A stretch of DNA of 46,859 bases from Catajapyx aquilonaris (Eukaryota): NCBI GenBank assembly GCA_000934665.2, contig KZ538797.1, forward strand, positions 1 through 46,859. The letters run 5' to 3'. Numbering within the stretch: position 1 is the stretch's first letter; each line of letters starts with the position of its first letter. This document shows positions 9,682 to 41,651 of this stretch, piece by piece. The notes beneath the pieces were generated by a model. That model saw only the letters and a list, made by a program, of their open reading frames with translations. It was not told the DNA's origin and ran no database searches. Made by a program: the position numbers and the translations under genes.

Positions 9682-11088
9682 ATGTCTCCCCACATTCCGG
9701 TGTCATCCCTCCGTGATTTGTGCTTGGCATTCGTCAAGTCCCGCATATTGCGCTACATTCAACGCACTGCCCATCGCCGTCAAAAATTGCCCAATCCAGC
9801 CGACCTTGTGACCCGGCGCTTCCTTCTCACTTCTCTTCCGTCAGGCATGCTGGATGACATACTGAACTCCATCCTGTCTGACTGGGATCTTGATACTCAC
9901 TGCCGCTTACATGCACTTGACATGCTTTTGGATAATTCCACCTGTCGCATCTCCCTAGGCTCATTTAGATCCGACTACCACTCACAGGTCTTAGACACCC
10001 TGGAAGATCGTACAGGGCATGGCATGCATGAAGTCTGTTTTTCCCACATTTGGCTATCACCAGATATGTTCCCAAGAGTGGACAGGCTGTTCCAGAAATG
10101 GTCGCAACTGCAGATGTTGGTTATGCGTTATGTTGCAACAGATGCTCTCCTAAAATCTATTGCTTGCTGCTGTCAAAATTTGCACCACCTTGACGTGAGC
10201 GAATCGAAAGCCATAACATCCATTGGAGTTGACGCACTTGCGTCATCAAGCTGTTGCCAGGTCCTGCGGTACCTCAATATTGGGGTTACATCGGAGTATC
10301 TGGCACCAGAATCACTCTGCACACTCATCATGAACGCTGTGAATCTGATCAACTTCCCATTGTATCAGTATACTGGACGTGTACTAAATTTGATCATTGC
10401 CAGACAACCAGATTTTCACTCCCACTTGCTGCACTTGCGCGACTTTGGCACTGATGCATTGGTGGCATCCAGCATCAGGAGTGCATGCCCGGAACTCCAA
10501 GGAATATACCTGGACACACCTGAACAGTCTGCAATTACATTTTTTACCTTAACCTCAGTCAAGATCCATCGATTTTGCACACACTGGCTTGACCCAATTT
10601 GGACCAACCCACGACCCAACTTGACTTCCCTGGAGCTAATACGTGGAAATGGGACTCTTGATCTTTCACGAATCAACTGCCCCAACCTGTCAGTGCTTCG
10701 ATGCTCCAACATCGACTCCATCCTCTGCCCTGACGTGCCTTTCCCACACCTGACCACACTGGAAATCCGATCCTGCTCCATCGGTTACCATCAAGTCCCA
10801 CACCTGCTGAAATGTCCATTACTTGAGACCTTGATGCTGGACGTTTGTTGGAACCTGGATGACGCCGTCTTGCAAGAAGTGCTGTTTGCAGATGGTTTAA
10901 GCCACCTCAAGACAATTGTGCTGGATCCTGCCCCACACCTGACACAACAGGGTCTCCAGATGCTGATTCACTTCTGTCCTGAGCTCACCCTGGTTGGGAA
11001 CCTGGACTCCTGGAATGTGAGCTCACAGGAGGTACTGGAACTCACAGAGATCCTTGACACTGCCAATCTCAATGTTGTTCTTCTCTAG
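9682..11088 (+). CDS. LRR protein 2 (BC-box/Cul2-box-like N-terminus)
   Basis: 468-aa ORF; VSSLRDLCLAFV, LPSGMLDDIL, repeats CQNLHHLDVSESKAITSIGV, LTQQGLQMLIHFCPEL; splice acceptor TTTACAG immediately upstream. Confidence 0.82.
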   Translation: MSPHIPVSSLRDLCLAFVKSRILRYIQRTAHRRQKLPNPADLVTRRFLLTSLPSGMLDDILNSILSDWDLDTHCRLHALDMLLDNSTCRISLGSFRSDYHSQVLDTLEDRTGHGMHEVCFSHIWLSPDMFPRVDRLFQKWSQLQMLVMRYVATDALLKSIACCCQNLHHLDVSESKAITSIGVDALASSSCCQVLRYLNIGVTSEYLAPESLCTLIMNAVNLINFPLYQYTGRVLNLIIARQPDFHSHLLHLRDFGTDALVASSIRSACPELQGIYLDTPEQSAITFFTLTSVKIHRFCTHWLDPIWTNPRPNLTSLELIRGNGTLDLSRINCPNLSVLRCSNIDSILCPDVPFPHLTTLEIRSCSIGYHQVPHLLKCPLLETLMLDVCWNLDDAVLQEVLFADGLSHLKTIVLDPAPHLTQQGLQMLIHFCPELTLVGNLDSWNVSSQEVLELTEILDTANLNVVLL

Positions 11089-19991: not shown

Positions 19992-20939
19992 GGCTCCAGA
20001 ATTGACTATGAGGATGTAGTAGCAACTAGCCTTTTTCTAGAGAGGAAACAGACGGAACATTAGTTTTTCCTACTCATATATCTGCCAAGATGAAACATAA
20101 GTTTGACCATAGAATGACAAGTAAACAGATATGGATGACACAGGATGACATAAGATCAGTATCCACTTTTGTTTGAATTACTCATGTAAGATAACAGCTT
20201 ACGTACTCAAGAAGCAGGCAATAAGTCAGACGTGACTTCACAGCACTAATAATGAATTTCGTCTACAAATGCTCTGCTTTACAACCCCATTACTGACAAT
20301 CATGGTACTCGACATACTACAAGTAATAAATATTTTTCCATTAGAAATCATAAAAAATGCCAGTTTTTCCACATGAGTATAAGCAAAAGATATAAACCAC
20401 AAGCCACATGGAAGATGACCTGATTGGGAAATGAGGGAATCTTTAATTGGAAAATCCTATCATGCGAAAATTCTCTGCAGTAGATGACCCTTGTGCTACA
20501 GGCAGGTTTCACCGTATTAATCTTGCACAATTTAGGACCTATGCTAAGAACACAGTGCCATCCAAATTGTGGTAAAAGATTGCCACATGGGTGACAATCC
20601 CTGGAAAAACTTATTCTGCAGGTATCTAATTCCAATGACCTAACATCGATTGCCTTACATGCGAAGGCATCCTTCAGAGGCATTGTCCAGCAGAATCAAA
20701 GTTCATGTAGCCGCTTAACTTTGACCCCCTGTGAATATCTGAATCAGCCTATCGTATTTTGAGATAAGCATCCTCCTGTAGGACACAAAAAAAATCTGAC
20801 TAAGGCAGAGTCCAAGAAATTTGTGTGACCCTTTGGCATTAAATATTTCCCTCCATCAAGGCACCATTCCTCTCAATCATAAAAAATGGGCCGCTGTGTT
20901 GGCCAGGTCACAAATGCACAGACTGCGGGTCACTCGTGT

Positions 20940-21146
20940 ATCATGCGTACCACGTGTCGCGGTCACACCACGTTTCACCCGGATGCTGCCCTGTTGTGAA
21001 TCCGCCTGTCGATGGACCACTTCCAGCAAGGACGTGTGGTCTTCCTTTGTCGGTCTGTCGCACGTCTGTCGGTTGTCGGTGACTCGGAAAAGGCGGGAAC
21101 AGACCGCGTGGAAGACTGGATGCCCTACTAGTGGCAGTGGGTGAGG
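20940..21146. promoter_or_regulatory. Probable CTPS / SLC25A3 bidirectional promoter with non-coding first exons
   Basis: CpG-rich; minus-strand donor-like GTG|GTACGC at ~20950, plus-strand donor TGG|GTGAGG at 21141; both genes have an acceptor just before their ATG; GGTCACAC motif ~20961. Confidence 0.6.
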
Positions 21147-21545
21147 GTCAAGGAGAGGGAGGGATGCAGGAGGGGGCAGGGTTGGCAGATCGATATCTGA
21201 GGCTGCCGCCAGGGTTGCCAGATGGAGATGCGGCACCAGGGGCTGCCCATAGACCCGACCCAAACCGGCACCCAAACCACACCCTGACAAAAATCGAGAA
21301 AATGTCCAGTGCCCCAACCTCAGGTGTCCTTTGGAAATATCAGACGACGGTGAGCGACAGTGCCATGTTGCCCTCCGTCCAATTGGGAGGCTGGACCCAC
21401 CCCATGTGACCACATCCTCATCCAGCAGCCCCCTCTTCCGGCTAGTGGCCATATTGGAAAAGGTAACGTCCACCTCTGGCTCCTCTCCCTTTTGGCCCAC
21501 TAGCCTCTTCCTGCAACCTTTGCCCTCCCTTTTGCAGCTCCAGCC

Positions 21546-24500
21546 ATGTTGTACCGGTCCCTGTTGGATGTGGCCAAGACCAACCCCTTCGGCGGACCCA
21601 TCCACGCCGCCTCCTGCGAGCCAGGACCTAACAATGCAGCGGTGCCCACCGTGGTCGAGCCAGGCAAGCTGGTCCAGGGGAGGAGCATACAGGCCGCGGC
21701 GCCATCAGGTCAGTTGGTCACCATGGCCAGAAAAGGCCCTTGGGAGAAAGAGACAGAGAGGGGCTGGCTGGGTCTGTGAGGGATTGGATTATGTAATCGC
21801 CACACGCGAATTGCTTAACTTTGGCCGTGAGGTGGATGCGTGCCAGTGTGGTTTTGACGTGAAGGGGAAGAGGCAGCAGGGGGATGCATTAATGTGGCAC
21901 CAATTAGGATGCAACCCTCCAATGAATGTTGCTTGCTGGGGAGGTAGCAGAGGTGTAGGAGGATGTGAACCAGTGGAGGGAAAATTGCATGGGGCAGGAG
22001 CTGTGACTTGTATGGGAGTTTGTGGCTTGAAAAATGGGGTGCATAAAAATATAACCATTCATTTAACCCTGGTATGGTGACATATGGTCTTTTAGGCCAC
22101 CAAGAATTAAAAAGCATGGCAATGAGTGACCCTGAAAAACTCCATGTATTCCTTCATCATTTCACAGATTAAATCCAGTTTCATAATTTTCACACCCACC
22201 AAAATGTAGATAATTCGTTGTTTTTTGACCCATGGTCTCGTAATTGTCATTATCTAAGTGCTGATACGCTGTAAAGGAAGCTTTATTATTGTGAACTGTT
22301 GCCATTTTAGACTTTTTCTCATCGGAAAAAGTCTTATAAAACGGCTCTGTCTGTCTGTACATGGACAGGTATCAGGGCCTAAACCAGTGGTTCCCAACCT
22401 TGACCGGGTCACGACTTGGTTGCAGATGGGTAGCAGGGTACAGAATCACGAATATGTGAATGCATGGGCCACGGAGGAACGGGTGGGGGGTATGCATGTG
22501 ATTGGGGGATGGGCATCATCATTGGCTATAAGTCCAAAGCGATTAAAAATGTGTTTTTTAAATATATAAAAGTCCAGGTTTTTTATATATCAAAACCCTC
22601 GCGATGCTAGCATTTTTCTAGACCAGTGTCCTGCAGTGCCTACCATATTTTTAATCACTTTGGACTTATAGCCGATGATGATGCCCATCCCCCAATCATA
22701 TGCATACCCCCCACCCGTTCCTCTGTGGCCTGTGCATTCACATATCTGTGATTCCGTACCATGATACCCATCTGCAATCCCACCTTTCCTTTGCATTGGC
22801 TGGGAAATATGCATTTGCCCTTCTCAATTACCAATACTTTTTGTACCGTATATTTAAAACCGCCAATTATTGTATGAACAGAAAGTCACAACCTTTACCG
22901 CTTCTACTCGCATGCACTGGCACATATGTATCTAAATGATATCCACACTTTCCGACCTCATTCTTTTACTATCCGACGACCATAAGAGTGAACCTTTTTG
23001 GATATGCATACGCCCGAAGGGTCGGTGAGCCTCCCGAAAGTAGTGCCGAACATGCCGGGCCCTACCGCTCCTCACAACAAAATGTGCAGTTTGTGTAGTG
23101 CTCCACCTACCGTACGGGGTGCCCATGACAATTAGGCAGTCGAATTACATGTACCAGCACTGTTTCTTCGAGAAAGCCAGAGATACCACTAATACAGTAT
23201 ACAGCATATTAAGAGTTGCCAATGAAATTTGAAAATTAATTTATAGCTCACTGTATTTCAACTAATCTACACCTTGAGGAGGGGACTAGGTGTCATTGGG
23301 GCACAGGAACACAAGAGTGTCGCCAGCTGTGCTCAGGATTGAATTTATGCCAAACTGCACTGGTTCTTGGCCAAAATTTGGCAACAGATTGTTTAAGGAA
23401 GCCAACTAGGGAGGTCAAGGCAGGCCAAAAATATCGCACTGCTACAAACCCCCTTGCTTTAACCCTACTGTAGGTATACCGGAAGTAATTTATTGTGTTA
23501 AGTACAAAATAAGTACCGGTATTTGTTGAATATCTTCATGCTGTTTCTTGGGCTTGAGATAGCTTATTGAAGCATTTGCTGCTATTGAACCATGTCTGAT
23601 TGGACCATCTTTGTAGTCAAGTAGTAAACTGCCAAGTAAATTTAAGAAAATTGTTGAAAATAGCGTAGGGGATTTTTGCGGTAACAAACCAAAGTTCAGA
23701 CGATTTAAAAAAACTTTCATTGTGATTTTCCATGCTTGTGGAAAACCTTTGGGGATTCTGTTTTTTTCTATGGAGTTCCAGGTACAGAGGGCAGCATTTT
23801 GCCTAAAATCCGACACAAATATATCATTCGAAAGCGCCAGAGGAGCGAGAACAAACACTGTAATGAACCAAACTTTTGAGGACACGCATTTCAGCACCGG
23901 GTTGCACTGCGTAATAACTCTGGGAATTCTAAGTGGTTGCGATGGCAGTGTAGAGATGCTCTAGTGAAGAAAAGTGTGAGGAATCCATTGGTTACCTTTC
24001 CATACCGATATCTGCTTTTCTTTGCATCGTAGGGCAACAAAACTCTCGGTAATGAACCAAGAAAAAAAGTAACGAACCTAGGTGTGTGATTTACCGCCAT
24101 TCAGAACCTATGCAAGGGTAGTATTTGTGAGCTGTTTTACCTGAGGATGTACATAATTAAAACGGGACACATCCAGGGCACCTGACCAGTCATCAAAGTC
24201 TTTGGGGAACAGGGTGACACAGCCACATCATTGAAGTTATGAACTGACTAGAGGGGAAAAGATTTTAATAAATGTTTATTCAAATATTTATAACAGTTAT
24301 TACAATTCGACTTGTAAGTACAAAAATTATCTCTGGCAGAGAAAGACAAGGAATTTCATCAGTACTATAGACACTATTTTGTCTATTTTGGGTTTTCACG
24401 ACTTTCATGACCCTTTTGCCTTTTTTGGGATAGTTTGTGAACTTTTTGAAGAAATTTCGGCACTTTTTGGGCCTATTCAGGACCTATTCCTGTGGAGGCA

Positions 24501-27273
24501 TGTTTGTTTTTTGAGGAGTATTTTTTGTGCTCCTGAAAGTACCTAAAGAGTTCAGAGTAATTAGTTTCGCCAATGAAAATCTAGAAAAATATTTGCTAAC
24601 ATACTGTGCAAGTAGAAATGGGCTATAACCTATAAGCGGTAGAGTTCAGAGCAAGAGATATTTGGTTGCACTTTATCTTTTGCCTCAGTTTTGTGATTTT
24701 GTCAGTTTATTGTTGTTATTCGGTTTTTGTTACGGTTTGTGACTTATATTTATACACTAGGTCTATAAAACTTGTCTGGCCTTTTAATATTCTGTAACAT
24801 TATCCTCCATATGCTCGCAAAAGTAAAATTATTGTGCCTATTTGAGGTTTTTTCGTGCCTATTTAAGTGCCTATTTCAGGCGTTTTTAATGCTTAATAAT
24901 CTGGACTGTAAATATTACCAATCAAATTGCATTTACCAAATCATGCATACAGTTATTGGTCAGGAAATATTTAAAATGGAATGGACTGCTGCTTCAGGAT
25001 TAATAACCCCACCTTCCCCCCTTTTTTTCCAGAGGGAAGTAGCTGCGAATTTGGATCCTTGAAATACTATGCCCTCTGTGGATTTGGTGGAATCCTGTCT
25101 TGTGGTATCACCCACACAGCTTTGGTGCCCCTTGACTTGGTCAAGTGCCGCATTCAGGTGAACCCAGACAAGTACAAGTCCATTGTGAATGGGTTCAAGG
25201 TATCGATAAAGGAGGAGGGAGCCCGCAGCTTGCTGAAAGGATGGGCCCCAACCGCTATTGGCTACTCCATGCAGGGGCTGGGCAAGTTTGGATTTTATGA
25301 AGTGTTTAAAATCCTTTATTCTGGAATGCTTGGAGAGGAGAACACATACCTCTGGCGTACCTCCCTCTACCTCGCTGCCTCGGCTTCGGCTGAGTTCTTT
25401 GCCGACATTGCCCTCTGCCCCATGGAAGCAGTCAAAGTGCGGATCCAGACCCAGCCAGGGTTTGCCTCTACCCTCAGAGAGGCTGCTCCACTCATCATGA
25501 GGACTGAAGGGTTCAATGGATTTTACAAGGGGCTGGTCCCACTGTGGATGAGGCAGATCCCATACACCATGATGAAGTTTGCCTGCTTTGAGCGTACTGT
25601 TGAACTGCTCTACAAGTGAGTGCACCATTGCTTCAGTGCCGCTTAAGTGTAGTGTTTTAAATTTGTGTTAATGGTACTGATAATGATATTTGCAGTTTCC
25701 TTTATGCTTGTTGATTTTGCTGGAACTTATGATTAGTATACAGTAGATTGAACAAAATAATATTATCTACATATTGCTGTAGTAGGAGGATTTTAGGTCT
25801 GGTTTTAGGTCAGAAGTAACTAGAGTACTGAAGAGCATTTAAGCCTACCCAGTTTTTAAAAACCAACTGTAATGCCAGACTATACAGTATACTACAAATG
25901 CTGCAATGTTGCAGGTTTTATTTTTGTTTTGTGACATGTCAGTTAGAACCTGCTGCCATAGTGCCCGGATATGAATACAATACAATCCTGGTGGCATCCT
26001 TCCTGATAGTGCCGAGTGTAGGTCATGGAACTTCGTATCATTATCATAAACTATTGCAATTCAATACAGTCCATGACACATGAGTCCCAGATTACTGAAG
26101 TTGCAGGTAATTATCTGTAACGCATGCTCCTTAGATCCGCTCTCAGGTCCATTGGGAGTGAATGAGTCATAAGCATGCAAGATCAATACACCTCCATTAT
26201 TTGACCATACATGTGCAGATTTACTTCAATGGGATGGTGCATTGCTTGAATGGAATGTGACGTTTTGTTGCATTCAGTTTAAGCACAGCGTCGTACAACT
26301 GGAGTTAGACATTTCATTAAGAACTGAGCATTTGTTTGGTTTTTAGGAATGTCACTTGTTTCTGCATATGGCTAGTCAACAATGGGGACATGTGCATTAA
26401 TATAAATGGCTGTTCCTCTACCCAACCTTTTGTGCTGTGTTGTAATTAGACTATGTTTTACAGGCATGTAGTTCCAAAGCCTCGTGCTGACTGCTCAAAG
26501 GCTGAGCAGTTGGTGGTGACCTTCGCTGCTGGTTACATTGCTGGTGTGTTCTGCGCCATTGTGTCCCATCCAGCTGACACTGTTGTTTCCAAGCTTAACC
26601 AAGACAGTGGGTCCACTGCTGTTCAGGTGGCCAAGAAACTGGGCTTTGCAGGTTAGTAATTTGATGATTTAGTTGTCTAGTAAATTTTGATCATTATTGA
26701 AGTGAAATCGCTATTACAGCGAATATTATTAGGGGATGCTTTATGCATATTACGACAAACTCGGTGGAAAAAATTCTGTAATTGCATTCAAGTGAGCGCA
26801 CCATGACATGTCATAGGGTTTGATATCTGCTACGGCTTACATTAGTTGCACTGCAGAAGTGGAAACTAATTTTGTTGGTTCCTTACAATTTCTATGTATT
26901 TGATCTCTCCTTCAGGAGTTACCTTTCAGAAAAATTGATTCTTTCTCAATTAAGATTTCTTGCGAACTTACCCAAGAGTAATATCCATTGAAAGTGGTGT
27001 ACCACATTTCTTGACAGCTCATTGTTTGGGGTTTATTAATTTTTAGGTCCCCTGCTCCATTTTCTTAAAAATGTGCTTGTGTTAAAACAATGATTTCTTT
27101 ACTTCTCAGGACTGTGGAAGGGCCTCACCCCGAGGATCATCATGATTGGTACTCTGACTGCCCTTCAGTGGTTCATTTATGATGCAGTGAAGGTGTGGCT
27201 GGGTATACCTCGCCCACCACCCCCCGAAATGCCGGAGTCGCTGAAAAAGAAGCTAGCTGAGAAGCAGAAGTAG
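21546..27273 (+). CDS. SLC25A3: Mitochondrial phosphate (copper) carrier, copy 1, 365 aa
   Basis: Exons 21546-21708, 25033-25615, 26464-26651, 27110-27273; presequence [61 protein letters not shown]. Confidence 0.96.
22418..22779. mobile_element. Fold-back / MITE with ~130-bp inverted arms in a PiC copy 1 intron
   Basis: 22418-22550 is the near-perfect reverse complement of 22646-22779. Confidence 0.85.
26121..26314 (+). ncRNA. SNORA53: Box H/ACA snoRNA, SNORA53-like, predicted guide for a 28S helix-69 pseudouridine
   Basis: Hairpin GCATGC...GCATGC, H box AGATCA (26180-26185), hairpin CTCCA...TGGAG, ACA at 26309-26311 followed by TTT; pocket CCTTAG / GAGTCATA complementary to 28S UAUGACUC-UC-UUAAGG; vertebrate SNORA53 is hosted in SLC25A3. 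Confidence 0.85.
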
Positions 27274-27921
27274 ACAAAACTTATTTTCCTGATCCCCTGC
27301 CTTTCCAATAACCCTACAGCCAAAAAATTATGACGTGTAGTTCCAGTCCCAAAAATAGTGCACGCGAACAAGATTTACGAATAAAAAATTTATCACTGCA
27401 ATTATGGAAATAATCTGCCATAAAAGTTGTGGAAAGGTAGTAGGTTCTTCACACCCAGATGAAATAGTATTGTTGTTGCGGAGGGAAGGTTGTGTCATCG
27501 CAAAGCTATCAGCGAAGTATTTATTGTTGACGGTGCTGTTGTTCTGCCCTTTCCTTCATCAATGCAATAAAATGAGTAAAGACATGTGAATGCTATCAAT
27601 ATTTTGTTGCCCATTTTGCATTGCTACTCCAAAGGGTGGTGTATTTTGACTGACTGTACTGCAATGTAATTGAGCCTTTGAATAGTATATCAGTCACAAG
27701 CTATTTTGTCAGATTTTCACTTAATTTGTGTTCATACTTGTACAAGTGGGATTCGCAAATTCAGCATCAAGTGATTGGGGGCAGGAAATCGGCACTTTGG
27801 GAGAAGAAAGTGAGTGGCAGGTGGCAAGGACTAAGCATTGTAACAATTGACTTTAATAATCATAATCTGGATATACAAATGCCTGTAGAAAAATTCTGTT
27901 ATGCACCACAGCTAACTGCAC

Positions 27922-28790
27922 CTCTTCTTGGCCTCTTCTGCCGTGAGCCACTGGAAAAAGTTGCAGCTGGCATCTGCGTTTGAACTGTGTCCAACATCTG
28001 TGGCCAGCTCCAGAACTGCTTGTTGAAATTGGGTCCCTTTTTCTTGACTGTGCGCAACACACAATCACACTCCACCAGTAGAAGTATTGTATGTCACAAA
28101 AAGGTAATTTGACAGGAGAGCCAAAAGATCACATTTGATGGGAAATTTTAACACTACGTCACAATAATTTTTGGGCCAAATATTACCATTCTTGTACTGG
28201 TGTATGCGTTGCACACTGAGCTACCCAGGGAAGGACATGTCTCCTTTTCTTCAAAATGTGGACATACAATACTTCTACTGGTGGAATGTGACATGCTTCC
28301 CCATGACCCATGCACTTTGGAGGTGACTTGGGGCCTGTCAAGACCAATTTCCAGGCAGCAGCCAATCTACCATTTCCTTCCTGGGAGTCTGATCCCTGTA
28401 AACTGGCATCACTACTGAACTCGCTACCTGTGACAGAGCTGTCTGTACTGCACTGGAAATCGGGAATTGTATTGGCAGTACTGTCCGGTTGCAATTGAAG
28501 AGGGTTTTCCACACCATCCGCAGGAGATACAGTATGTCTGTGATGGTCTGCAAGTCAACGTTTGGCATGCCACATATGCTCAATTGAGATACAGTTTTAG
28601 AATCGAATACTCCACTTGAGTTTGTATTGGTTACCTTCCAGGGGAAAAATTTGATATGCCCTGCTGCTTTGTACTGCAATTGGCACTCAACTTCTGCTTC
28701 TTTGCTGGTGATGGACTCATTGTACCCTTGGCCATTTGTTTGCTTGACTGGACATTGACACCAATCTCTGCTGCTTGCCTGAAAACTCTG
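27922..28790 (-). pseudogene. Decayed 3' fragment of APEX2 (copy A)
   Basis: Colinear with ~39740-40385; deletions, frameshifts and a MITE insertion; catalytic 5' part absent. Confidence 0.9.
28065..28291. mobile_element. MITE inserted in the APEX2 pseudogene
   Basis: ~30-bp TIRs CACACTCCACCAGTAGAAGTATTGTATGTC / GACATACAATACTTCTACTGGTGGAATGTG; absent from intact APEX2 at ~39885. Confidence 0.88.
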
Positions 28791-30183
28791 ACAAAGTTAC
28801 TCTTCTTACCCTCCTAAATTTTGAAAATATTTGGATTTTCTAATTCTGCTTGGCCTAGTGTTGTCCAAACATCACCTCTGCTGCTAATTTTCACGTCAAA
28901 ATACAAGCTAAAGGCAATATTCCGAAGCCACAACACCTAGCGGTCAGTCGTGGGTCACTGGTCCCTGGTCGCTGTGACTGTAGCGCTCTCGAGGGTGGCA
29001 CAAAGGAGTTTAATATCACCTCACACGCTTCAAAATCGATTTTGTGTAGCAATTTATGAATCATGTTTAATCAATCATTTACATATCATTGATGTCAGTC
29101 CTGACGACCAGCGACCCGCCACCCTCGACCGGTTGCAGGTTTATGACCTTTAGAAGATACCTGGTTTATGCTGTGCTTAAGAAAACCTCGCCTTATACCG
29201 GCATACCAGCTGAGACAAGCATGCCGGTACAGCCACCAGATCGAGCATTTAAAAAAACTGGTCGACATCTCCTACACCGGCCTGCCGCAATAAGTGAGGT
29301 AATACCTTTGGTAATACGGTGTAATTAAGTAATGTAACATAATATTTATTATTATGAATAGAATTTATAATAATTGAATCCTTATATTGAAGCTGCAGGA
29401 ACCAAGAGCGATCCCATTATGCTCAATCGGGGGCCCACTTCCGTCGTGACCTTGAAGTGAACTGGAGACAACCGTAGGCCACTCATTCGCTGTAAAGGCC
29501 ATTTCACAGAAAAATGAAGGAAAAATGTCGCGCGGCAAACGGCGCGACTTGCGGCAAATTTTTTATTTATATTTATTGTTGCCAATAGACATGAAGGCCG
29601 CGGTAATTTTGCGACCGACCAACAAATGGCCAGTTGATAAACAAAAATTGACGTTGCCAGTTGATGGTATCATTATGAACAAATGAAGTAATGACCCCCC
29701 CCCCCCCCCANTCATAACTCCAATCCTGTAGCAGGTAGAACTGTGAGGTTTTGGACATAGATCCGCACCATCCTAATGCGCATTCGGCTCTTTGATTAAG
29801 AAACCGAATTACGAATAGTTATTGAGCAATAAAAACAAACCACGTATTTTAGCGGGTTTAAATTTTTTTGCGGCGTTTCGAAGAGGTAAATGGCGGGAAT
29901 GCACTTCACGACCGGTGGGGATATGCGTTCAAAATGTGGCAGCTCTACCTGCAGCAGAACTTGAGTTAGGGCGAATTTTTTAAAAAACCTAACAACAACA
30001 ACAAGCTGCTGTTGATTAAAAAATCATTGTTGAAATGCTATGCTACGGTCTTATTTAGGAAATAATCTAAATCTACACTGGCCACATCGGAAAAGGTATA
30101 ATAACGTCCACCTCTGGCTCCTCTCCCTTTTGGCCCACTGGCCCCTTCCTGCAACCTTTGCCCTCCCTTTTGCAGCTCCAGCC

Positions 30184-33100
30184 ATGTTGTACCGGTCCCT
30201 GTTGGATGCGGCCAAGACCAACCCCTTCGGCGGCCCCATCCGCGCCGCCTCCTGCGAGCCAGGACCTAACAATGCAGCGGTGCCCACCGTGGTCGAGCCA
30301 GGGAGCAAGTTGGTCCAGGGGAGGCGCATACAGGCCGCGGCCGCGGCAGGGAAGCCCGCGGCGCCATCAGGTCAGTTGGTCACCATGGCCTGGAAGGCTT
30401 CACTGGCCCTTTGGGTTAACTCATAAAGGGTTCGAGGCATGAGCGTAGAGTTTAGCATGTAAAAATGTTGTACGCAACATGCTAGCGACATGCTAGCTCC
30501 TCAACTAAACCGTTTAAGTACCAGTACGTAAAAAACATGTCTCCTCATGTTTTATATGGGTCGCTGATTTCGATTTTTAGGTTATTTTGAACCTGGACCT
30601 ACAGGGTGTACCATGAAAGACCATCGAATTTTAGAACTTGTAGTATCTACATTATACAGTATGTACGGATAGGCTAAAATAATATTTTCCAATGTGTTGG
30701 AGAACACTGATTTTGATTTTTAGGCTACATCGAACCCGGACCAACACCTTGTACCAACAACACCATAAAATTTGGGAGCGTATGAAATAAATTGGCAGTT
30801 GAAAATGATGTTTCTGTACAAAACCGCAGTTGCTGTTTTAAATTATGTAGTATTTTGTTATGTAGGCACTCAAAAATTTAGGAAACACACTGTGCTTCTG
30901 AAAAAGAGTAGAAGTTATTAATTCATGACCTTTGAAATTCAGTTTAGGACATAAACTGAACCTCCTTTGAATGCATCTCTCAGGTGTTTTAACCCTGGAA
31001 CCGTGCCTGCAAGTATTACGGCAACCGTGCCGTGGGGTCTTTTCGGACCCCACCATATTTTAATTTTTATTAAATATTATATAATACTTTTCAATGTATT
31101 GACTATATACAATCATTCGTTGAACAATGTCTAAAAGGATCGCTAATTCAAAATAAACCTGCACTTCCTGTTATATACTTTATAATTGATATTAAGGAGG
31201 TTGGCCTAGCATTGCCTTTCAACCTCCAAGGATAGGGAAGGAAGGGAGCGGCTGTGACCTATAATACGGAAGCGACCCCGGAATTATCCTAGAAAGACCG
31301 TGGAAAACCACAGAAAACCACGGTCAGGGTTGCCGGCCCCGGGATTCGAACCCAGGACCTCCCGATTAGCAGTCGGACGCCCTATCCACTATGCCAACCT
31401 GCTTCGGTTCCTGTTATATACTGTAAGAAAATCTCAAAAGTTCATTGTAATTATCATTTTAATGCATTTTTTTCCTTGGGGTCCAAAAAGACCCCATGGC
31501 ACGGTTCCAGGGTTAATTTCTAAAATTGCGTTGGATTATGATTTTCTAGTTACAGTACTCCCTGGTTGTCATCATAACAGCAATTTCTTGGTTGGGCCAC
31601 ATTTAGCTGCTTCCGCAGGATAGGGTTTATCATACGAATACCAAAAATATCAAGTTATTTTTAAAAATTTATTTCATGAAAATTAAAAATAATTATTAGT
31701 ACATAAAGAAATTATGTAATTCTTCTTGTAACCCTCTCAATTAATTAAGGACATTATTTGCAATAATTTATACCATTTATCCGACAAGTTATTAAATGCA
31801 ACAGTGTTTCGTAATATCCTGTAGGTCTTGGTTCAAAATAACCTTGATATCAAAATTAGAGACCGCAAAAGCATCAGAAAATGTTATTTGCACCTACTTG
31901 TAGTGTTTTTTTCGAGTTTTTTTTCTAGAAGTTTTTAAATTCCATGGCGAATGTTTGGTACACCCTGTAGGTCCCTGTCCAGGTTTAAAATAACCTAAAA
32001 ATCGAAATCAGCGACCCCTAAAACATGGGGATCAAACACACTATGTGACGCCTCTAACTGTCTGTTAACATTGATAATTTCAAAATACCATGTGACCTGG
32101 GGGGGGGGGGGGGGGGGGGGGNAGGCTGTGTGTCAAAAAATCGGTTTCACATGGTATTTGTACGTCATGTAAATGTGATAACAAATGTGGAAGTCCAGAA
32201 ACAAGGTGTGTGGTGGTGTGGTGTGTTATGTTCATATAAATATACAGTGTATATCGACTTTTCCAAACGTCAGTGTGGTATGCATGATAAGGCTTATTTT
32301 GTTCAAAAATTCCCACTTAAATTACATTTACCAAATCATGCATAAGCTACAGTCAATGATCAGGAAATATTTATAATGGAATGGACTGCTGCTACAGGAT
32401 TAATAACCCCAACTGCCCCTTTTTTCCAGAGGTATATAGCTGCGAATTTGGATCCATGAAATACTATGCCCTCTGTAGCTTTGGTGGAAGCCTGGCTTGC
32501 GGTATCACCCACACAGCTGTTGTGCCCCTTGACATGGTCAAGTGCCGCATTCAGGTGGACCCAGACAAGTACAAATCCATTGTGAATGGGTTCAAGGTAT
32601 CGATAAAGGACGAGGGAGCCCGCAGCTTGCTGAAAGGATGGGCCCCAACCGCGATTGGCTACTCAATGCAGGGGCTGGGCAAGTTTGGATTTTATGAAGT
32701 TTTTAAAATCCTTTATGCTGGAATGCTTGGAGACGAGAACGCATACCTCTGGCGTACCTCCCTCTACCTCGCCGCCTCGGCTTCGGCTGAGTTCTTTGCC
32801 GACATTGCCCTCTGCCCCATGGAAGCAGTCAAAGTGCGGATCCAGACCCAGCCAGGGTTTGCCTCTACCCTCAGAGAGGCTGCTCCACTCATCATGAGGA
32901 CCGAAGGGATCAATGGATTTTACAAGGGGCTGGTCCCACTGTGGATGAGGCAGATCCCATACACCATGATGAAATTTGCCTGCTTTGAGCTTACTGTTGA
33001 ACTGCTCTACAAGTGAGTGCACCACTACTTCAGTGCCACTTAAGTGTAGCGTTTTAAATTTGTGTTAATAATACTGATAATTATATTTGCAGTTTCCTTT

Positions 33101-34422
33101 TTATTTCTTGATTTTGCTGTATACAGTAGATTGAACAAAAATTATCTGCATATTGCTGTAATAAAAGGGTTTTTAGGCCAGGATTGAGGTCAGAAGTAAC
33201 GGGTACCCAGTTTTTGAGGACCAACTGTAATGCCAGGCTATACAGCATACTACAAAATAATGCTGCCATAGTGCCCAGATATGAATACAATGCAATCCTG
33301 GTGGCATGCTTGGTGATAGTGCCAAGCGTAGGTCATGCAACTTTATATCATTGTTATAAACTACTACAATTCAATACAGTCCATGACTCATGGGGCCCAG
33401 ATTACTGAAGTTGCAGGTAATTGTCTGTAACGTTTTGTTCGTCTCACGACGTTTCATTAAGAACTGAGCATTTGTTTGGTTTTTAGGAATGCCACTTGTT
33501 TCTGCATATGGCTAGTCAACAATGGGGACATGCACATTAATAAAATTAGCTGTTCCTCCACCCAACCTTTTGTGCTGTGTTGTAATTATATTATGTTTTA
33601 CAGGCATGTAGTTCCAAAGCCTCGTGCTGACTGCTCAAAGCCTGAGCAGTTGGTGGTGACCTTCGCTGCTGGTTACATTGCTGGTGTGTTCTGCGCCATT
33701 GTGTCCCATCCAGCTGACACTGTTGTTTCCAAGCTTAACCAAGAGAGTGGGTCCACTGCCGTTCAGGTGGCCAAAAAACTGGGCTTTGCAGGTTAGTATA
33801 GTTTGCTGATTTAGTTGTCTGCTATCTACTAATTTTGATCACTATTGGAGTGAAAGTGCTATTACAGCCAAAATTATTGGGAGATGCTTTATGGAACAAT
33901 TTACGACATACTCAGTGGAAAAAATTCTGTCTTGGTATTCAAGTTAGCGCAGCATGTCATAGGGTTTGATTTCTGCATCAGTGGCTACTAGTTTCGTTGG
34001 TGCCTTACAATTTTAACGAATTTGATCTCTCCTACTGGAGTTACCTTTCAGACAAATTGATTGCTTTCTCAATTAAGATCTTGCCAACATCCCCAAAGAG
34101 TATAATCAATTGAAAGTGGTGTAAAACTTACCACATTTCTTGCCAGCTCATTGTTTGTGGTTTTATGGTATGGTGGTTTTGTGGTATTTTTGGTTCCCCT
34201 GGTCCATTTTCTTAAACATGTGCTTGTGTTAGCTCAATATGTTTTCTTTATTTCTCAGGACTGTGGAAGGGCCTGGCCCCGAGGATCATCATGATTGGTA
34301 CACTGACTGCCCTTCAGTGGTTCATTTATGATGCAGTGAAGGTGTGGCTGGGTATACCTCGCCCACCACCCCCCGAAATGCCAGAGTCTCTGAAAAAGAA
34401 GCTAGCCATGAAGCAGAAGTAG
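30184..34422 (+). CDS. SLC25A3: Mitochondrial phosphate (copper) carrier, copy 2, 373 aa
   Basis: Exons 30184-30370, 32430-33012, 33604-33791, 34259-34422; frame and GT-AG sites intact. Confidence 0.9.
30993..31512. mobile_element. piggyBac-type MITE (TTAA target)
   Basis: TTAA|CCCTGGAACCGTGCC ... GGCACGGTTCCAGGG|TTAA, with subterminal GGGGTC-N-GACCCC palindromes. Confidence 0.88.
31180..31407 (-). mobile_element. Second family of tRNA-derived SINE, nested in the piggyBac MITE
   Basis: Minus strand: TGGCATAGTGG A-box, GGTTCGAATCCC B-box; 15-bp TSD TTCCTGTTATATACT at 31165-31179 and 31408-31422. Confidence 0.88.
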
Positions 34423-34934
34423 ACGAAAATTATATTCCTGATCCCCTGCCTTTCCAACAACCCTACAGCCAAAATTTGATGACGTGTAGTTCCAGTCCCA
34501 AAAATAGCACACGCAAACAAGATTTACGAATGAAAAAACAATTATGGGAATAGTCTGCCATGAAAGTTGTGGGACGGTAGTAGGTTCTTCACACCCATAT
34601 GAAATTGAATTGTTATTGCTGAGGAAAGGTTGTGTCATCGTAAAGCTATCAGTGAAGTATTTATTGTTGCCTGTGCTGTTGTTCTGCCCTTTCCTTCGTC
34701 AATGCAATAAAATGAGTAAAGACATGTGAAAGCTATCAATATTTTGCTGCCCATTTTGTACTGTTACTTCAAAGGGTGGTGTATTGACTGACTCTACTGC
34801 AATGTGTTGAGCCTTTGAATAGTACTGGAGTCACAAGCTATTTTGGGAGATTTTCTGTTAATTTGTGTTCATACTTGTAAAGTGGGATTCACAAATTCAG
34901 GATGAAGTGATTGGGGGCAGGAAATCGGCACTTT

Positions 34935-35220
34935 TTTTAAAATATATACATCCCATGATAGGGCCCGAAGCCTTCTTGGGGGGACGGGGACGGGACGTTC
35001 CCAAGGGAGGGTGCTGTGCTGTAGTCATTTCTGATATTCTTGAACACGAAACCTTTTCTCCTGGCCCTGGACAGAGTCGAGTGCATTTCTTCCCCGGCAT
35101 GTTGGGTGAAAAGCGGAAAAACACTTTACCAAGCAGCATTGACGGGGACGGAATTTGAACCCTGGACCTCCCGCTTGGCTGGTCAGTAGCATAGCCACTA
35201 GACCACCATGCCTCCCTCTG
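34935..35220 (-). mobile_element. Third family of tRNA-derived SINE
   Basis: Minus strand: TGGTCTAGTGG, GGTTCAAATTCC; 15-bp TSD GGAAATCGGCACTTT at 34920-34934 and 35221-35235; empty site at ~27784. Confidence 0.9.
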
Positions 35221-35376
35221 GGAAATCGGCACTTTGGGAGTAGAAAGTGAGTGGTAGATGGCAAGGGAAGCGATCACAGCTTGACCAAACATTGTAACAA
35301 TTTACTTTTAATACTCGTAATCTGGATATACAAATGCCTGTAGAAAAATTATGTTATGCACAACAGCTAAACTTCC

Positions 35377-36333
35377 CTTCTTCTAGGCGTTTTCTGCCTT
35401 GAGCCATTGGAAAAAGTTGCAGATGGCATCTGCGTTTGCACTGTGTCCAACACCTCATGGACACCTCCGGAACTGCCTGTTGAAATTGGGTCCCTTTTTC
35501 TTGACCGTGTGCAACATATGCTTCCCTGGTGACTTGGGGGCTGTAAAGACCATTTTCCAAGCAGCAGCCAATCCACCCTTTCCTTCCTGGGAGCCTGATT
35601 CCTGTAAATTGGCACCTCTACTGAACTCGCTACCTGTGACAGAGCTGTCCGTACTGGACTGCAAATCTGGAATTGGACTGGCAGTACGATCCGATTGCAA
35701 TTGAGGAGGGTTTTCCACATCATTATTATGTCTGTGATGGTGTGCAAATCAGCATTTGGCATATCACATGTGCTCAAGACAATTGAAGGGCTCCATGGAA
35801 GAAAGGGGTAAACTAGAGGGGAATTCCCATCTAGTTACCCCCTTCTTCCATGGAGTCCTTCAATTGAGAGCCAGTTTTAGAATCACATACTCCACTTGAG
35901 TTTTTATTGGTTACCTTCCAGGAGAAAAACTTTGATAAGTCCTGCTGCTTTGCACTGCAATTGGCTGTTTGGCACTGAACTTCTGCTTCTTTGCTGGTGA
36001 TTACGGACCCCTTGTACACTTGGCCATTTGTTTCCTAGACTGAACATTATTGACACCAAGCTCTGCTGCTTGCCTGAAAACTCGGCGAAGAATTTTGTGC
36101 AATGCCTTGGATGCTTCTCTGCTTTTACCAAGTGGAAGCTGAATGTGACCTGAACTGGATAATGATCACTTCCTAGAACATCATGCAACATATCTGATTC
36201 CTCCAGCACTGATGTCATCTTTTTGTCAGCAATAATGTAGTCCAGTCTTGTATCATAGGTATTTTCACGTGCATTTAAATATGTGCACCAGCAAGTAAAT
36301 GCACCAGATTCTTTTGGATACAGGTACCTGAAA
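35377..36333 (-). pseudogene. Decayed 3' fragment of APEX2 (copy B)
   Basis: Colinear with ~39740-40633 (FTCWCTYLNAREN, RLDYII, GSDHYPV); frameshifts and an ~85-bp palindromic insertion at ~35780-35866. Confidence 0.9.
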
Positions 36334-36534
36334 ACAACGTTCATTTAGCTGCTGAACTTTGATCCCCTGTGATTATCCGAATCAGCCTATCACATTTTGA
36401 GATAATCAGGGAAGTGGCCATATTGGAAAAGGTAATGTCCACAGTCCACCTCTGGCTCCTGTCCCTTTTGGCCCTTTGGCCCTCTTGTATAGCTCTTTCC
36501 TGCAACCTTTGCCCTCCTTTTTGCAGCTCCAGCC

Positions 36535-39057
36535 ATGTTGTACCAGTCCCTGTTGGATGTGGCCAAGGTCAATCCCTTCGGCGGCCCCATCCCAGCCGCC
36601 TCCTGCGAGCCAGGACCTAACAATGCAGCGGTGCCCACCGTGGTCGACCCATGGAGCAAGCTGGTCCAAGGGAGGAGCATACAGGCCATGGTGCCATCAG
36701 GTCAGTTGGTCCCCATGGCCTGGAAGGCTTGGCTGGCCCTTGGGAGAAAAAGAGAGAGAGAGGGGTGGGCTGGGTCTTGAAGGATTGGATTATGTAATCG
36801 CCAAGTCATATGGACAGGTGTTCATTGTTGAGAGGTCTTTGTGATTTGAATTGTTATTACCCATTTACTCTGCACCATGCATGGATGATTAGTCTGGCAA
36901 AATTGATTGCGAAAGAAAAATTAGGTGCACTAAAGTCTAATGAAGGAAGGGGCTATCATGCGGCTACCTCCCGCAAACCACCCCGTCAGACCCCCAAAGG
37001 AAATAAGAGGAGATAAGAGGGAAGTGACCAGACCTTCGTTTTCCTTCCCTTGTCCAGGTCCCTTGTCCCTTGTCATGGTTGGCTGCTGACTATATTATAA
37101 GCCCCAGTCGAGTCAGAGTAGAGGAAGATGTCTGACAACGCCCGATGACGCCTAACGACACCAGCAAGCACGAGTCCAGAAATAAAGTAATTGCCGACCT
37201 TTTAAAATATCCATAGAAAATCATATACAGTGTATGTATATCCACTTTCCCAAAAGTCAGTGTGGTACGCATGATTAGGCTGATTTTGTTGAAAAATTAC
37301 CAGATATTGGTCAGTAAATAATTATAATGGAATGGACTGCTGCTTCAGATTAATAACCCCAACTTCCCTTTTTTTCCAGAGGAAAGTAGCTGCGAATTTG
37401 GATCCATGAAATTCTATGCCCTCTGTGGCTTTGGTGGAATCCTGGCTTGTGGTATCACGCACACAGCTATGGTGCCCCTTGACATGGTCAAGTGCCGTAT
37501 TCAGGTGGACCCAGACAAGTACAAGTCCATTGTGAATGGGTTCAAGGTATCGATAAAGGACGAGGGAGCCCGCAGCTTGCTGAAAGGATGGGCCCCAACC
37601 GCTATTGGCTACTCACTGCAGGGGTTGGGCAAGTATGGATTATATGAAGTTTTTAAAATATTTTATTCTGGAATGCTTGGAGAGGAGAACACATACCTCT
37701 GGCGTACCTCCCTCTACCTCGCCGCCTCGGCTTCGGCTGAGTTCTTTGCCGACATTGCCCTCTGCCCCATGGAAGCAGTCAAAGTGCGGATCCAGACCCA
37801 GCCAGGGTTTGCCTCTACCCTCAGAGAGGCTGCTCCACTCATCATGAGGACCGAAGGGATCAATGGATTTTACAAGGGGCTGGTCCCACTGTGGATGAGG
37901 CAGATCCCATACACCATGGTGAAGTTTGCCTCCTTTGAGCGTACTGTTGAACTGCTCTACAAGTGAGTGCACCACTACTTCAGTGCCGTTGAAGTGTAGG
38001 ATTTTTCTTAATGGTTTGCAGTTTTATTTTTATTTATTTAATTGTCTGGCACTTATAATCAGTATACAGTAGATTCAACAATAATTATCTGCATATTGCT
38101 GTAGTAAAATGGTTTATAGGTCAGAAGCAACTAGGGTACTGTTAAAGAGCATTTAAGCCTACCCAGTTTTTTAAGACCAACTGTAATCCCAGACTATACA
38201 CTTATACAGTATACTACAAATGCTGTTCCTCCACCCAACCTTTTGTGCTGTGTTGTAATTAGATTATGTTTTACAGGCATGTAGTTCCAAAGCCTCGTGC
38301 TGACTGCTCAAAGCCTGAGCAGTTGGTGGTGACCTTCGCTGCTGGTTACATTGCTGGTGTGTTCTGCGCCATTGTGTCCCATCCAGCTGACACTGTTGTT
38401 TCCAAGCTTAACCAAGACAGCGGGTCCACTGCCGTTCAGGTGGCCAAGAAACTGGGCTTTGCAGGTTAGTAATTTGCTGATTTAGTTGACTGGTCAATTT
38501 TGATCATTATTGAAGTGAAATCCCTATTAAACAGCCAATATTATTAGGGGATGCTTTATGGAACAATTTACGACAAACTCAGTGAAAAAAATTCTGTCTT
38601 GGTATTTAAATGAGCACATCATGACATGTATAAGGGTTTGATTTCTGCAGAAGTGGCAACGAACTTTGTTGTGCCCTACAATTTTTACGAATTTGATCTC
38701 TCCTTTCAGAAAAATTGATTCCTTTCTCAATTAAGATTTCTTGCCCACTTGCCCAAATAGTAGTAGCCATTGAAAGTGGTGTACCACATTTCTTGCCAGC
38801 TCATTGTTTGTGGCTTTATTAATTTTTTGGTCCCCTGGTCCATTTTCATAAAAATGTGCTTGTTTAACTCAATATGTTTTCTTTACTTCTTAGGACTGTG
38901 GAAGGGCTTGACCCCAAGGATCATCATGATTGGTACACTGACTGCCCTTCAGTGGTTCATTTATGATGCAGTGAAGGTGTGGCTGGGTATACCTCGCCCA
39001 CCACCCCTCGAAATGCCGGAGTCACTGAAGAAGAAGCTAACTGAGAAGCAGAAGTAG
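36535..39057 (+). CDS. SLC25A3: Mitochondrial phosphate (copper) carrier, copy 3, 366 aa
   Basis: Exons 36535-36700, 37380-37962, 38277-38464, 38894-39057; frame and GT-AG sites intact. Confidence 0.9.
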
Positions 39058-39133
39058 ACGAAAATTATTTTCCTGATTCCCTGTCTTTCTAATAACACTA
39101 CAGCCAAAAAATGATGACATGTGTACAGTTGCA

Positions 39134-39422
39134 GGGACAAGATAACTTATGTGTTTTGGGAGGTGGCTTGTGTCCTTGGCAACTACATAATTAACCCCGC
39201 CCCCTACCAGTCAATCAATCAGGATTGGATTCTAAAACCTCAAGAATGAGATGAGTTTGTTTTCACTCACACAATAATTGGTTACCCAGCAGCGGGCAAA
39301 TATTTCCCCACCAATCGTTCTAAATTACTAAGGGCTAATTATGGTTGCCAACTGCCAAGGACACACAAGCCACCTCCCAAAACTATAGAGTCTTACCCAA
39401 AACGCATGAGTTATATTGTCCC
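39134..39422. mobile_element. MITE in the 3'UTR of PiC copy 3
   Basis: GGGACAAGATAACTTATGTGTTTTGGG / CCCAAAACGCATGAGTTATATTGTCCC plus inner inverted arms; absent from copies 1 and 2. Confidence 0.82.
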
Positions 39423-39737: not shown

Positions 39738-41442
39738 TCATTTCTTCTTCTTGGCCTTTTCTGCCTTGAGCCACTGGAAAAAGTTGCAGCTAGCATCTGC
39801 GTTTGAACTGTGTCCAACACCTCGTGGACAGCTCCAGAACTGCCTGTTGAAATTCGGTCCCTTTTTCTTGACTGTGCGCAACACACATGCTTCCCCATGA
39901 CCCTTGCACTTTGGGGGTGACTTGGGACCCGTCATGAGCATTTTCCAGGCAGCAGCCAATCCACCTTTTTCCTCCTGGGAGTCTGATTCCTCTAAATTGG
40001 CACCACTGCTGAACTCGCTACATGTGACAGAGCTGTCTGTACTGCTCTGCGAATCTGGAATTGGGTTGGCAGTACTGTCTGGATGCAATTGAAGAGGGTT
40101 TTCCACACCATCCACAGGAGATATGTCTGTTATGGTCTCCAAGTCAGCGTTTGGCATGTCACATGTGCTCAATTGAGAGCCAGTTTTAGAATCACATACT
40201 CCACTTGAGTTTTTATTGGTCACCTTCCGGAAGAAAAACTTCGATATGTCCTGCTGCTTTGCACTGCAATTGGCACTCAACTTCTGCTTCTTTGCTGGTG
40301 ACTTACGGACCCCTTGTACACTTGGCCGTTTGTTTGCTTGACTGAACATTGACACCAAGCTCTGCTGCCTGCCTGAAAACTCGGAGAAGAACTTTGTGCA
40401 ATGCCTTGGACACTTCTCTGCTTTTACCACGCGGAACCTGAATGTGGCCTGAACTGGACAGTGATCACTTCCTAGAACATCACGCAACACAATTGATTCC
40501 TCCAGCACTGACGTCATTTTTTTGTCAGCAATAATGTAGTCCAGTCTTGTACCATAGTTATTTTCACGTGCATTTAAATATGTGCACCAGCAAGTAAATG
40601 CACCAGATTCTTTTGGATGCAGGTATCTGAAAGTGTCAATGAATTGTCCAGAGAGGAGTTCATCCATCCAGCGCCTCGAAGGACTACTGTCAAACTCTTC
40701 TCGAGGATCACAGTGGTCCAGTCGAGTGTGTGAAGTGTTGATGTCCCCTAGTATTATGACATGGCTCCCACTTTCAATGAGGGCTTCAGCCCTGCGTTGA
40801 ACCAACTGGTAAAAGCGGAGTTTGAATTCAAGCCTCTCTGGGTTGTCTTGATCAGCCCGGGGGCAATACACATTAATGATGGAAAGGGTTTCTTGCGACT
40901 CCTTTGTCTGAAACTTGTGCTGGGTGACGACTGCCCTTCCTTCAGCATCCAGATGCCTAAGATCTGACTGATCAAACTCATCCGGAATGGTACCGTAGCA
41001 CCCAACAGCATCGGAGTTGGAACTGCTTGGCAATAGCCCACTGAGGCCCTCCTCCGCCTTGAAAGGTGTGGCACCATCCCGGCAGTAGGTGGCCACCCCC
41101 GAGTACCCACTCCGCTTGCGGGAAAATGCAAAGTATGAGTTGTAGCCTGGAACTGATGCCACCTCTTCATCCAGAAGATCTCCTGTGGAAGTACGGTCAG
41201 GATCACTTTTCCTGTCCTCACTGATACATCACCAATTTGAACTTACTGGTGACTTTGGTCTCCTGCAGACAAATGACGTCTGCATCCAGGGAGCGAAACA
41301 GCTCCTTCAGGCTGACGCTGGAGGCCCGCACCCCGTTGATGTTCCAGCTCACCACCCTGAAAGCACCTGGAGACAACGGGCTGCCCTGTTCGTCGCCGTC
41401 GTCTCCACACGACGTTGGCGCACTCTGCTTTTCCCACGCCAT
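39738..41442 (-). CDS. APEX2: AP endonuclease 2 (EEP domain, PIP box, GRF zinc finger)
   Basis: Exons 41442-41247 and 41182-39738 (64-nt GT-AG intron, junction ETKVT-R-DLL); SWNING, GYSGVATY, GDIN, GTRLDY, GSDHCP; C-terminal CKGHGEAC...CNFFQW. Confidence 0.95.
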
Positions 41443-41651
41443 CTTTTCCCTGAGTCCCGTCACGATGATAGCGCCATCTATTAATCAGCACAATTTAATT
41501 ATTTTGTGCAGTTATTAGTTCTGCATCCCCTTTTTTAATTGCGATTAAAACTAACAGGGTGGGCATTCGGAGGTGTTGAATGTGCATCGTCTGCCAACAA
41601 GCTGCCAACAGTGGTGACGTCACCTTCCAGCGGGGCTGATGTGGCCAAAAG
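41443..41651. promoter_or_regulatory. Bidirectional promoter between APEX2 and SSR4
   Basis: Divergent ATGs ~210 bp apart; palindrome GGTGACGTCACC (CRE core) at 41613-41624; tandem CTGCCAACA. Confidence 0.65.

Follow-up and report, generated by a model that had tools for sequence, protein, structure and literature searches.

Mitochondrial phosphate carrier genes (PiC, or SLC25A3) stand three in a row on the plus strand of contig KZ538797.1 of Catajapyx aquilonaris (assembly GCA_000934665.2), a stretch of 46,859 nt that we call the window and that is one whole contig of the 286-Mb assembly. The second and third of these genes (copies 2 and 3) are two functional duplicates that lack the promoter and leader of their parent, copy 1, and either of the two main routes by which they may be expressed belongs to a known kind. 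Transcription from new start sites close to each copy is somewhat more likely than splicing from the leader of copy 1, and the two can coexist. The weights that we give to the routes throughout are judgements and were not computed.

A search of the assembly with PiC gave six matches, of which three are the tandem copies (93-100%) and the other three lie at 24-32%; the tandem copies are the sole close PiC matches in the assembly. The motif RRRMMM, the signature of the adenine nucleotide carrier ANT, was not found in 52 loci fetched from the assembly. All three copies contain PF00153 (Mito_carr; E <= 3e-41) and the Px[DE]xx[KR] signatures PLD[LM]VK, PMEAVK and PADT, and their named animal homologues are SLC25A3/PiC at about 80-86% over the query; the closest named carrier homologues, at about 85-87%, come from insects and chelicerates. 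By these signs the three encoded proteins are members of the PiC/SLC25A3 group. Among the putative substrate contact points and copper-ligand Cys/His residues, QGxxK, RQ, IIMIG and the equivalents of C70, C78, H82, C93 and C279 are kept in every copy, with the PIC2 numbering mapped by offset and not by alignment (residue roles as given in the excerpts of PMC7924939). The N-terminal presequence exon, of 54-62 codons, had no protein match at E <= 10 among 16 candidates, and a 33-nt pattern around the ATG had 0 matches in metagenome contigs.

The open reading frames (ORFs) of all three copies are open, with GT..AG at 9/9 internal introns, and copies 2 and 3 have neither a frameshift nor a stop. 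Decayed APEX2 remnants behind copies 1 and 2 are about as old and can be used as a neutral yardstick: over their 1,514 aligned nt, 13 of 15 indels shift the frame (11 without three end gaps), three stops are found, and private changes are non-synonymous to synonymous in ratios of 25.5:4.5 and 18:7. At that rate one would expect about 8-10 frameshifts per PiC copy (9.5-9.6, or ~8 without the three end gaps), and the PiC coding regions hold only two indels, both in frame (P about 1e-4 to 3e-4). The branch omega (the ratio of non-synonymous to synonymous rates) is 0.29, 0.53 and 0.56 for copies 1, 2 and 3, with p values for omega < 1 of 0.011, 0.047 and 0.12; the copy-1 branch in this estimate includes the stem of copies 2 and 3. 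The comparison shows copies 2 and 3 to remain protein-coding under relaxed purifying selection. From the intact ORFs and introns, the deficit of frameshifts and the constraint it follows that both copies were expressed for most of their promoter-less history. No RNA run was listed as containing 29900-39200, a long query, which speaks neither for nor against transcription.

An unprocessed pseudogene was considered and rejected, since copies 2 and 3, unlike the APEX2 remnants, show no frameshifts or stops, and their splice sites are intact. Allelic variants or an assembly artefact were likewise rejected: synonymous divergence (dS) between copies is 0.073-0.080, and each copy has its own insertions. 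Exon 4, with 5 changes in 188 nt, may have undergone some gene conversion, but divergence in the flanking introns is 2-7 times that of exons 3-5.

Single residues (in copy-1 numbering) deserve a separate mention. Copy 2 has R242L in an FERTV motif (32433-33012), a site with R or K in 102/102 homologues, and copy 3 has M235V, C239S, F140Y and P350L at near-invariant sites (37380-37962), the first three of which hit residues invariant among the 102 homologues. Near the start of the large exon, copies 2 and 3 possess an in-frame ATG (32456-32458 and 37406-37408; TTG in copy 1, 25059-25061) that could start a carrier without a presequence, and Met occupies this site in 20/102 homologues.

Each ATG exon is preceded by the same acceptor, as an earlier note on this DNA had pointed out: TTTGCAG/CTCCAGCCATG occurs three times, with AG at 21536-37, 30174-75 and 36525-26. 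That note also held that promoter and leader exist once, and a search of the assembly with 20690-21545 bears this out, as its four matches all lie within the window and query positions 82-754 are covered by the window itself alone. The deletion of about 670 bp that it placed before copy 3 was recovered as 673 nt, with 36332-36408 matching 20694-20770 over 77 nt and joined to 36413, the equivalent of 21444 onward. Only its start for the homology of copy 2 (~30085) had to be moved, to 30079 (= 21446).

The leader exon that the note proposed for copy 1 is a credible one. Among 47 GT sites in 20800-21537, the donor at 21141 pairs best with the 5' end of the genome's own U1, and its U1 match ranks in the top 0.4% of plus-strand GTs. 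The region 21041-21200 resembles the leader of RpS19 from the same genome (score 54, reached by 2% of 300 shuffles), and the layout of the RpS19 leader, that is, a CTTCCT start, a non-coding exon of ~100 nt, a GTGAGG donor and G-runs, is that of the putative copy-1 leader. A second donor-like sequence, AAG/GTA, was overlooked earlier and is present in all three copies (GT at 21463, 30096 and 36432), where it lies 75-95 nt upstream of the acceptors and defines candidate introns of 75, 80 and 95 nt. The evidence supports the note in that promoter and leader were lost and the copies went on functioning, so some replacement route must exist; the note listed long-range splicing, trans-splicing and captured promoters.

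The duplicated unit, as its matching ends define it, is ~20694 to ~40632 and contains PiC plus, from the convergent APEX2 gene, the 3' end. Its junction is visible at 36332, and the decayed APEX2 remnants lie behind copies 1 and 2. Copies 2 and 3 have the derived residues S77A, E115D and L90M in common, where copy 1 has the conserved state (S77 and E115 in 102/102 homologues, L90 in 100/102), so both descend from one duplicate and form a clade. Unique intron changes in copies 1, 2 and 3 (12, 10 and 17 in one comparison; 25, 28 and 16 in the other) are about equal, which puts the two duplications close together in time.

The homology of copies 2 and 3 begins at 21444-21446, which suggests one promoter deletion, and probably there was a single such deletion in their common ancestor. 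A possible 9-nt remnant of the junction in copy 2, where 30059-30067 matches 36399-36407 of copy 3 at 8/9 nt (P about 0.05), weakly supports it; upstream of copy 2, two dispersed repeats have taken the place of the junction block. A SNORA53-like small nucleolar RNA (snoRNA) in copy 1 has been deleted from copies 2 and 3. Homology shows a tandem duplication that gave rise to a second PiC gene, the loss of promoter and leader through the 673-bp deletion (probably a single event) and a further duplication that produced copies 2 and 3.

The reading that we favour, tentatively, is that copies 2 and 3 are transcribed from their own new start sites nearby. Copy 3 would start in the junction block and copy 2 in or just behind the repeat, and a short ATG-free leader would be joined to the retained acceptor by way of the retained AAG/GTA or of a donor that the repeat supplied. 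Expression of both would probably be restricted (e.g., to the male germ line, like that of Drosophila carrier duplicates), and copy 1 would keep the housekeeping and snoRNA-host role.

The U1 pairing energies of AAG/GTA in copies 1-3 are -6.8, -5.7 and -6.8, and the median of 20 window donors, themselves putative and hand-picked from reading frames (21 motifs tried, one not found), is -6.8. AAG/GTAATG also serves as a putative donor of the CTP synthase gene in the window, and the candidate introns of 75-95 nt are within the range of short window introns read by eye. The deletion took all six ATGs of the leader intron and ended 17-19 nt before AAG/GTA (P 0.16 for a uniform breakpoint). In copy 3, a new out-of-frame ATG (36435) lies just inside the 95-nt candidate intron, so some donor or other is probably joined to the acceptor in its mRNA. 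Copy 3 keeps the NRG-type element of copy 1 within 22/22 identical nt that reach to where the homology stops (P about 0.09), and each PiC copy has its own AATAAA. NRG is an element of insect energy genes, as the excerpts of PMC7504413 describe it; the retained AAG/GTA and the NRG of copy 3 would fit local transcription.

Several points weigh against local start sites, and every statistic that supports them is post hoc and weak. Farther than ~20-30 nt upstream of the retained block the DNA of copies 2 and 3 is unrelated, which would call either for a promoter capture by each of them separately or for a promoter that lies within the block. The repeat that precedes copy 2 looks old, at 77-78% to its other copies when those are 82-91% alike, and copy 2 has lost the homologous NRG and the YY1-like core. 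The local donor is not rare, as 4-8% of GTs score equally well, and chance would leave its 10 nt invariant with P 0.18.

No TATA or DRE was found upstream of copy 2 or 3, and the sole strict TCT-like start able to serve the local donor (21431) was deleted. Five ribosomal-protein loci of the same genome were taken for comparison, and none of the four with the right orientation had a strict TCT at a plausible start; one (L031) had the wrong orientation and was dropped, two (L034 and L035) were without a clear 5' end, and the remaining two gave 0/2 strict TCT at a plausible start, so a second terminal oligopyrimidine (TOP)-type start at 21432 (strict YCTYTYY) found no corroboration in these loci.

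It is possible, if less so, that the copy-1 promoter transcribes through the array and that the donor at 21141 is joined to the acceptor at 21537, 30175 or 36526, with the three genes acting as whole-gene cassettes and the distal ones favoured in some tissue. A shared leader makes a new promoter unnecessary and would explain constraint on two copies with different upstream DNA; it accounts at once for that unrelated DNA, the old repeat, the lack of TATA and DRE and the deleted TCT-like start. The leader is single-copy in the assembly, and in all three copies together the last 30 nt of the acceptor show a single change, for which the intron rate gives P about 0.04. It also has a direct precedent in sesB and ANT2, SLC25 genes that stand in tandem, use one promoter between them and are alternatively spliced, as outlined in PMC7504413.

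This splicing would, however, demand introns of 9,035 and 15,386 nt, where the longest located in the window is 3,324 nt, and would have to skip four or eight coding exons and two or three AATAAA signals. The acceptors are near-identical (88/92 aligned nt between copies 1 and 2) and so offer no evident handle for a switch, and a predicted fold pairs both ends of the 397-nt proximal intron. Docking/selector pairing, with 21141-21445 as the docking side, did not rise above dinucleotide shuffles (26-63% of them reached the duplex energy, and 23-26% of them had a helix of 13 bp), and inverted repeats of >= 11 nt were absent in this test; a Dscam-type docking/selector switch was rejected, the pairing being compositional.

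That copies 2 and/or 3 were once functional, have recently been silenced and are now decaying is improbable. The omega values of 0.53 and 0.56, with copy 3 not significantly below 1 (p 0.12) and its presequence exon at about 0.9, point that way, as do changes at conserved residues, namely R242L of copy 2 and, for copy 3, M235V, C239S and F140Y. Yet splice sites and Px[DE]xx[KR] motifs are intact in both copies, and a neutral phase behind the raised omega would mean that 34-51% of each branch was unconstrained, for which the probability of no frameshift is 0.008-0.04 per copy; a long dead phase, though not a very recent one, is therefore disfavoured on this reckoning.

Read-through into a polycistronic or chimeric mRNA is less probable still. 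Transcripts of copy 1 would here run past the poly(A) sites, and the acceptor of copy 2 or copy 3 would be joined to a donor that lies in the 3' untranslated region or in intergenic DNA, or copy-1 exons would be spliced to copy-2/3 exons. Two AATAAA lie behind copy 1, repeats and the antisense remnant of APEX2 take up 2.9 kb ahead of the ATG of copy 2, and an ORF downstream of the full 365-codon ORF would be expected to translate poorly. In its favour, similar genes occur at ~18% of fly polycistronic loci, according to excerpts of PMC4528330, and the window has no AATAAA between its two leucine-rich repeat (LRR) genes.

Spliced-leader (SL) trans-splicing onto the retained acceptors of a read-through precursor, which the earlier note had also listed, is the least probable route and finds no support here. 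The leader exon of RpS19 in this genome is an ordinary cis exon whose donor is strong. An acceptor conserved without its ancestral donor and the tight packing of the window genes would suit it, and it exists in at least one amphipod (PMC3282834). Seven 5S rDNA loci, at which 5S, U1, U5 and transfer RNA (tRNA) were matched, contain no Rfam SL family, though an arthropod SL may match no model; the 5S repeat is 208 bp, which leaves a spacer of 89 nt. As a separate observation, one locus (C97:60327-63445) has U1, 5S rRNA and U5 genes within 1.6 kb.

By analogy, a shared leader would not be new in kind, as sesB/Ant2 is a precise precedent and a much closer one than the exon 3A/3B switch of SLC25A3 that the earlier note invoked. 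The excerpts of PMC7504413 describe Drosophila sesB/ANT2 as tandem duplicates with a common promoter and alternatively spliced mRNAs, ANT2 being low except in testis. Both systems consist of tandem duplicated SLC25 carriers with one ubiquitous copy and a more divergent partner, and here too tandem same-strand paralogues follow one upstream promoter and non-coding exon, the downstream copies keeping an intact acceptor before the ATG and an intact ORF. They differ in the carrier (ANT there, PiC here) and in number (two copies there, three here); sharing has been shown there and is only a candidate here, and the duplication and deletion junctions here are young enough to read. The exon 3A/3B comparison is loose, since that switch concerns one internal coding exon pair and not whole genes behind a non-coding leader; the likeness lies in the same gene family with tissue-switched carrier versions (PMC5740500, as excerpted). 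A mutually exclusive exon pair was rejected here, as each PiC copy is a complete four-exon ORF with its own ATG, stop and AATAAA and shares no downstream exon.

In FlyBase, 130 genes have a promoter and 5' non-coding exons in common (e.g., Ip259/RpS27A), and some also have unshared promoters of their own; the examples named in the excerpts of PMC4528330 are not described there as young tandem paralogues. The same paper warns that reads joining nearly identical paralogues may stem from wrong mapping of short reads. The likeness is that separate coding regions stand behind one non-coding first exon, with sharing only a candidate in the PiC array.

New promoters have parallels of their own. Duplicates of carrier and other nuclear-encoded mitochondrial genes in Drosophila are testis-biased, to judge from portions of PMC7504413 and PMC5737092; in both cases energy or carrier copies are retained beside a housekeeping parent, and here the copies show faster protein evolution. 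A Drosophila testis copy of the glutamate carrier is described as being without the NRG element (PMC7504413), whereas PiC copy 3 keeps it. Excerpts of PMC7197356 report that in fly spermatocytes 1,230 genes change over to new promoters, among them alphaTub84D, with a spermatocyte promoter ~350 bp downstream of the old one. Human SNORA53 lies in intron 5 of SLC25A3, as stated in the excerpted PMC8763049, and copy 1 likewise carries an intronic sense-strand SNORA53-like snoRNA, which copies 2 and 3 have deleted. A search of an incomplete literature library found no description of such a tandem arthropod PiC array.

Table 1. Features of the PiC array, in positions of the window
Feature	Position	Strand	Details
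Left boundary of the duplicated unit, lying upstream of the promoter of copy 1	20694..20770	+	85.7% match to 36332-36408, which precedes copy 3
Leader exon of copy 1, probable and non-coding (start inferred)	21041..21140	+	Donor GT 21141; U1 match, RpS19-like layout, single-copy
Leader intron of copy 1, 397 nt	21141..21537	+	5' end rich in G-runs, 3' end C/T-rich; six ATGs within 21164-21404
Block retained in all copies	21446..21537	+	YY1-like GCCATATT (21448), AAG/GTA (GT 21463-64), pyrimidine tract, acceptor
PiC copy 1, 365 aa, ATG 21546	21538..27273	+	Exons 21538-21708, 25033-25615, 26464-26651, 27110-27273; AATAAA 27380 and 27566
NRG-type element TTATGTAA in copy-1 intron	21789..21796	+	
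SNORA53-like H/ACA snoRNA in copy-1 intron	26121..26223	+	45.4 bits (gathering 38), E 1.1e-7
Decayed APEX2 3' remnant behind copy 1	27905..28797	-	Frameshifts and stop
Dispersed repeat like a miniature inverted-repeat transposable element (MITE), with inverted arms, upstream of copy 2	28792..29140	.	Dozens of 81-88% matches in assembly
Second dispersed repeat, stopping 19 nt before copy-2 homology	29621..30059	.	Matches three other loci at 77-78%; contains GTs resembling donors, 29735 and 29886
Retained block, copy 2	30079..30175	+	Donor-like GT 30096-97, acceptor AG 30174-75; 80-nt candidate intron
PiC copy 2, 373 aa, ATG 30184	30176..34422	+	Exons 30176-30370, 32430-33012, 33604-33791, 34259-34422; AATAAA 34706
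Decayed APEX2 3' remnant behind copy 2, stopping at the duplication junction	35362..36333	-	
Junction block, in which a duplicate of 20694-20770 is fused with the retained block	36332..36412	+	ATG-free; Inr-like TCATTT at 36341
Retained block, copy 3	36413..36526	+	Donor-like GT 36432-33, acceptor AG 36525-26; 95-nt candidate intron
PiC copy 3, 366 aa, ATG 36535	36527..39057	+	Exons 36527-36700, 37380-37962, 38277-38464, 38894-39057; AATAAA 39451
NRG-type element kept in copy 3	36790..36797	+	Copy-1 homology stops 6 nt further on
Intact APEX2, tail to tail with copy 3	39738..41458	-	Exo_endo_phos and GRF zinc finger

Besides the three PiC copies and APEX2, the gene-dense window holds EXOSC8 (best protein hit at 49%), two LRR genes, a PDHB-like gene, CTP synthase and TRAP-delta. 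The LRR genes (8131-11088, plus strand) are intronless distant paralogues (22% identity) that lie 112 nt apart, with an acceptor just before the second ATG and no AATAAA until 11314, and are a candidate shared-leader or dicistronic pair. TRAP-delta has an apparent GC donor (AAG/GCACGT) at 42000-42001 (plus strand), read by eye, with the intron ending near 42898. YY1-like AAGATGGC/GCCATTTT were seen by eye at 14420, 41650, 41470 and 7965, positions that coincide with or lie close to the starts of, respectively, the PDHB-like gene, TRAP-delta, APEX2 and the region where EXOSC8 and LRR stand head to head.

Two intronic stretches of the array may be of mobile origin. In the copy-2 intron, a tRNA-like sequence on the minus strand (31331-31402, 38.4 bits) is probably a tRNA-derived short interspersed nuclear element (SINE). 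In the copy-3 intron, a TATA-like stretch followed by AATAAA (37090-37190, plus strand) adjoins the end of a repeat (36952-37044); it is a possible remnant like a long terminal repeat (LTR), or an internal promoter, and that part has no other match in the assembly. Elsewhere in the assembly, two further same-strand tandem pairs of carriers were seen, named here from their sequence: an intronless MTCH-like pair (L052, on C239), ~1 kb apart with 78% DNA identity, and an oxoglutarate-carrier-like pair (L050-L051, on C1139).

The array is young enough for its duplication junction, its promoter deletion and the neutral clock of the APEX2 remnants to be read, and so it offers a clean, cheap test of how a promoter-less duplicate stays expressed. 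If local start sites are used, this would be a case of ordinary promoter capture by diverging mitochondrial duplicates. If the leader is shared, the solution of sesB/Ant2 would have arisen independently in the partner carrier of ATP synthesis, and with three cassettes. That one leader is spliced tissue-dependently to any of three PiC genes up to 15 kb away, as a three-way counterpart of sesB/Ant2, is rather doubtful; were it true, the arrangement would be young and independently evolved, born when a deletion removed the promoter of a duplicate, and the resulting carriers would be unlike one another at residues that are invariant elsewhere (R242L; M235V and C239S).

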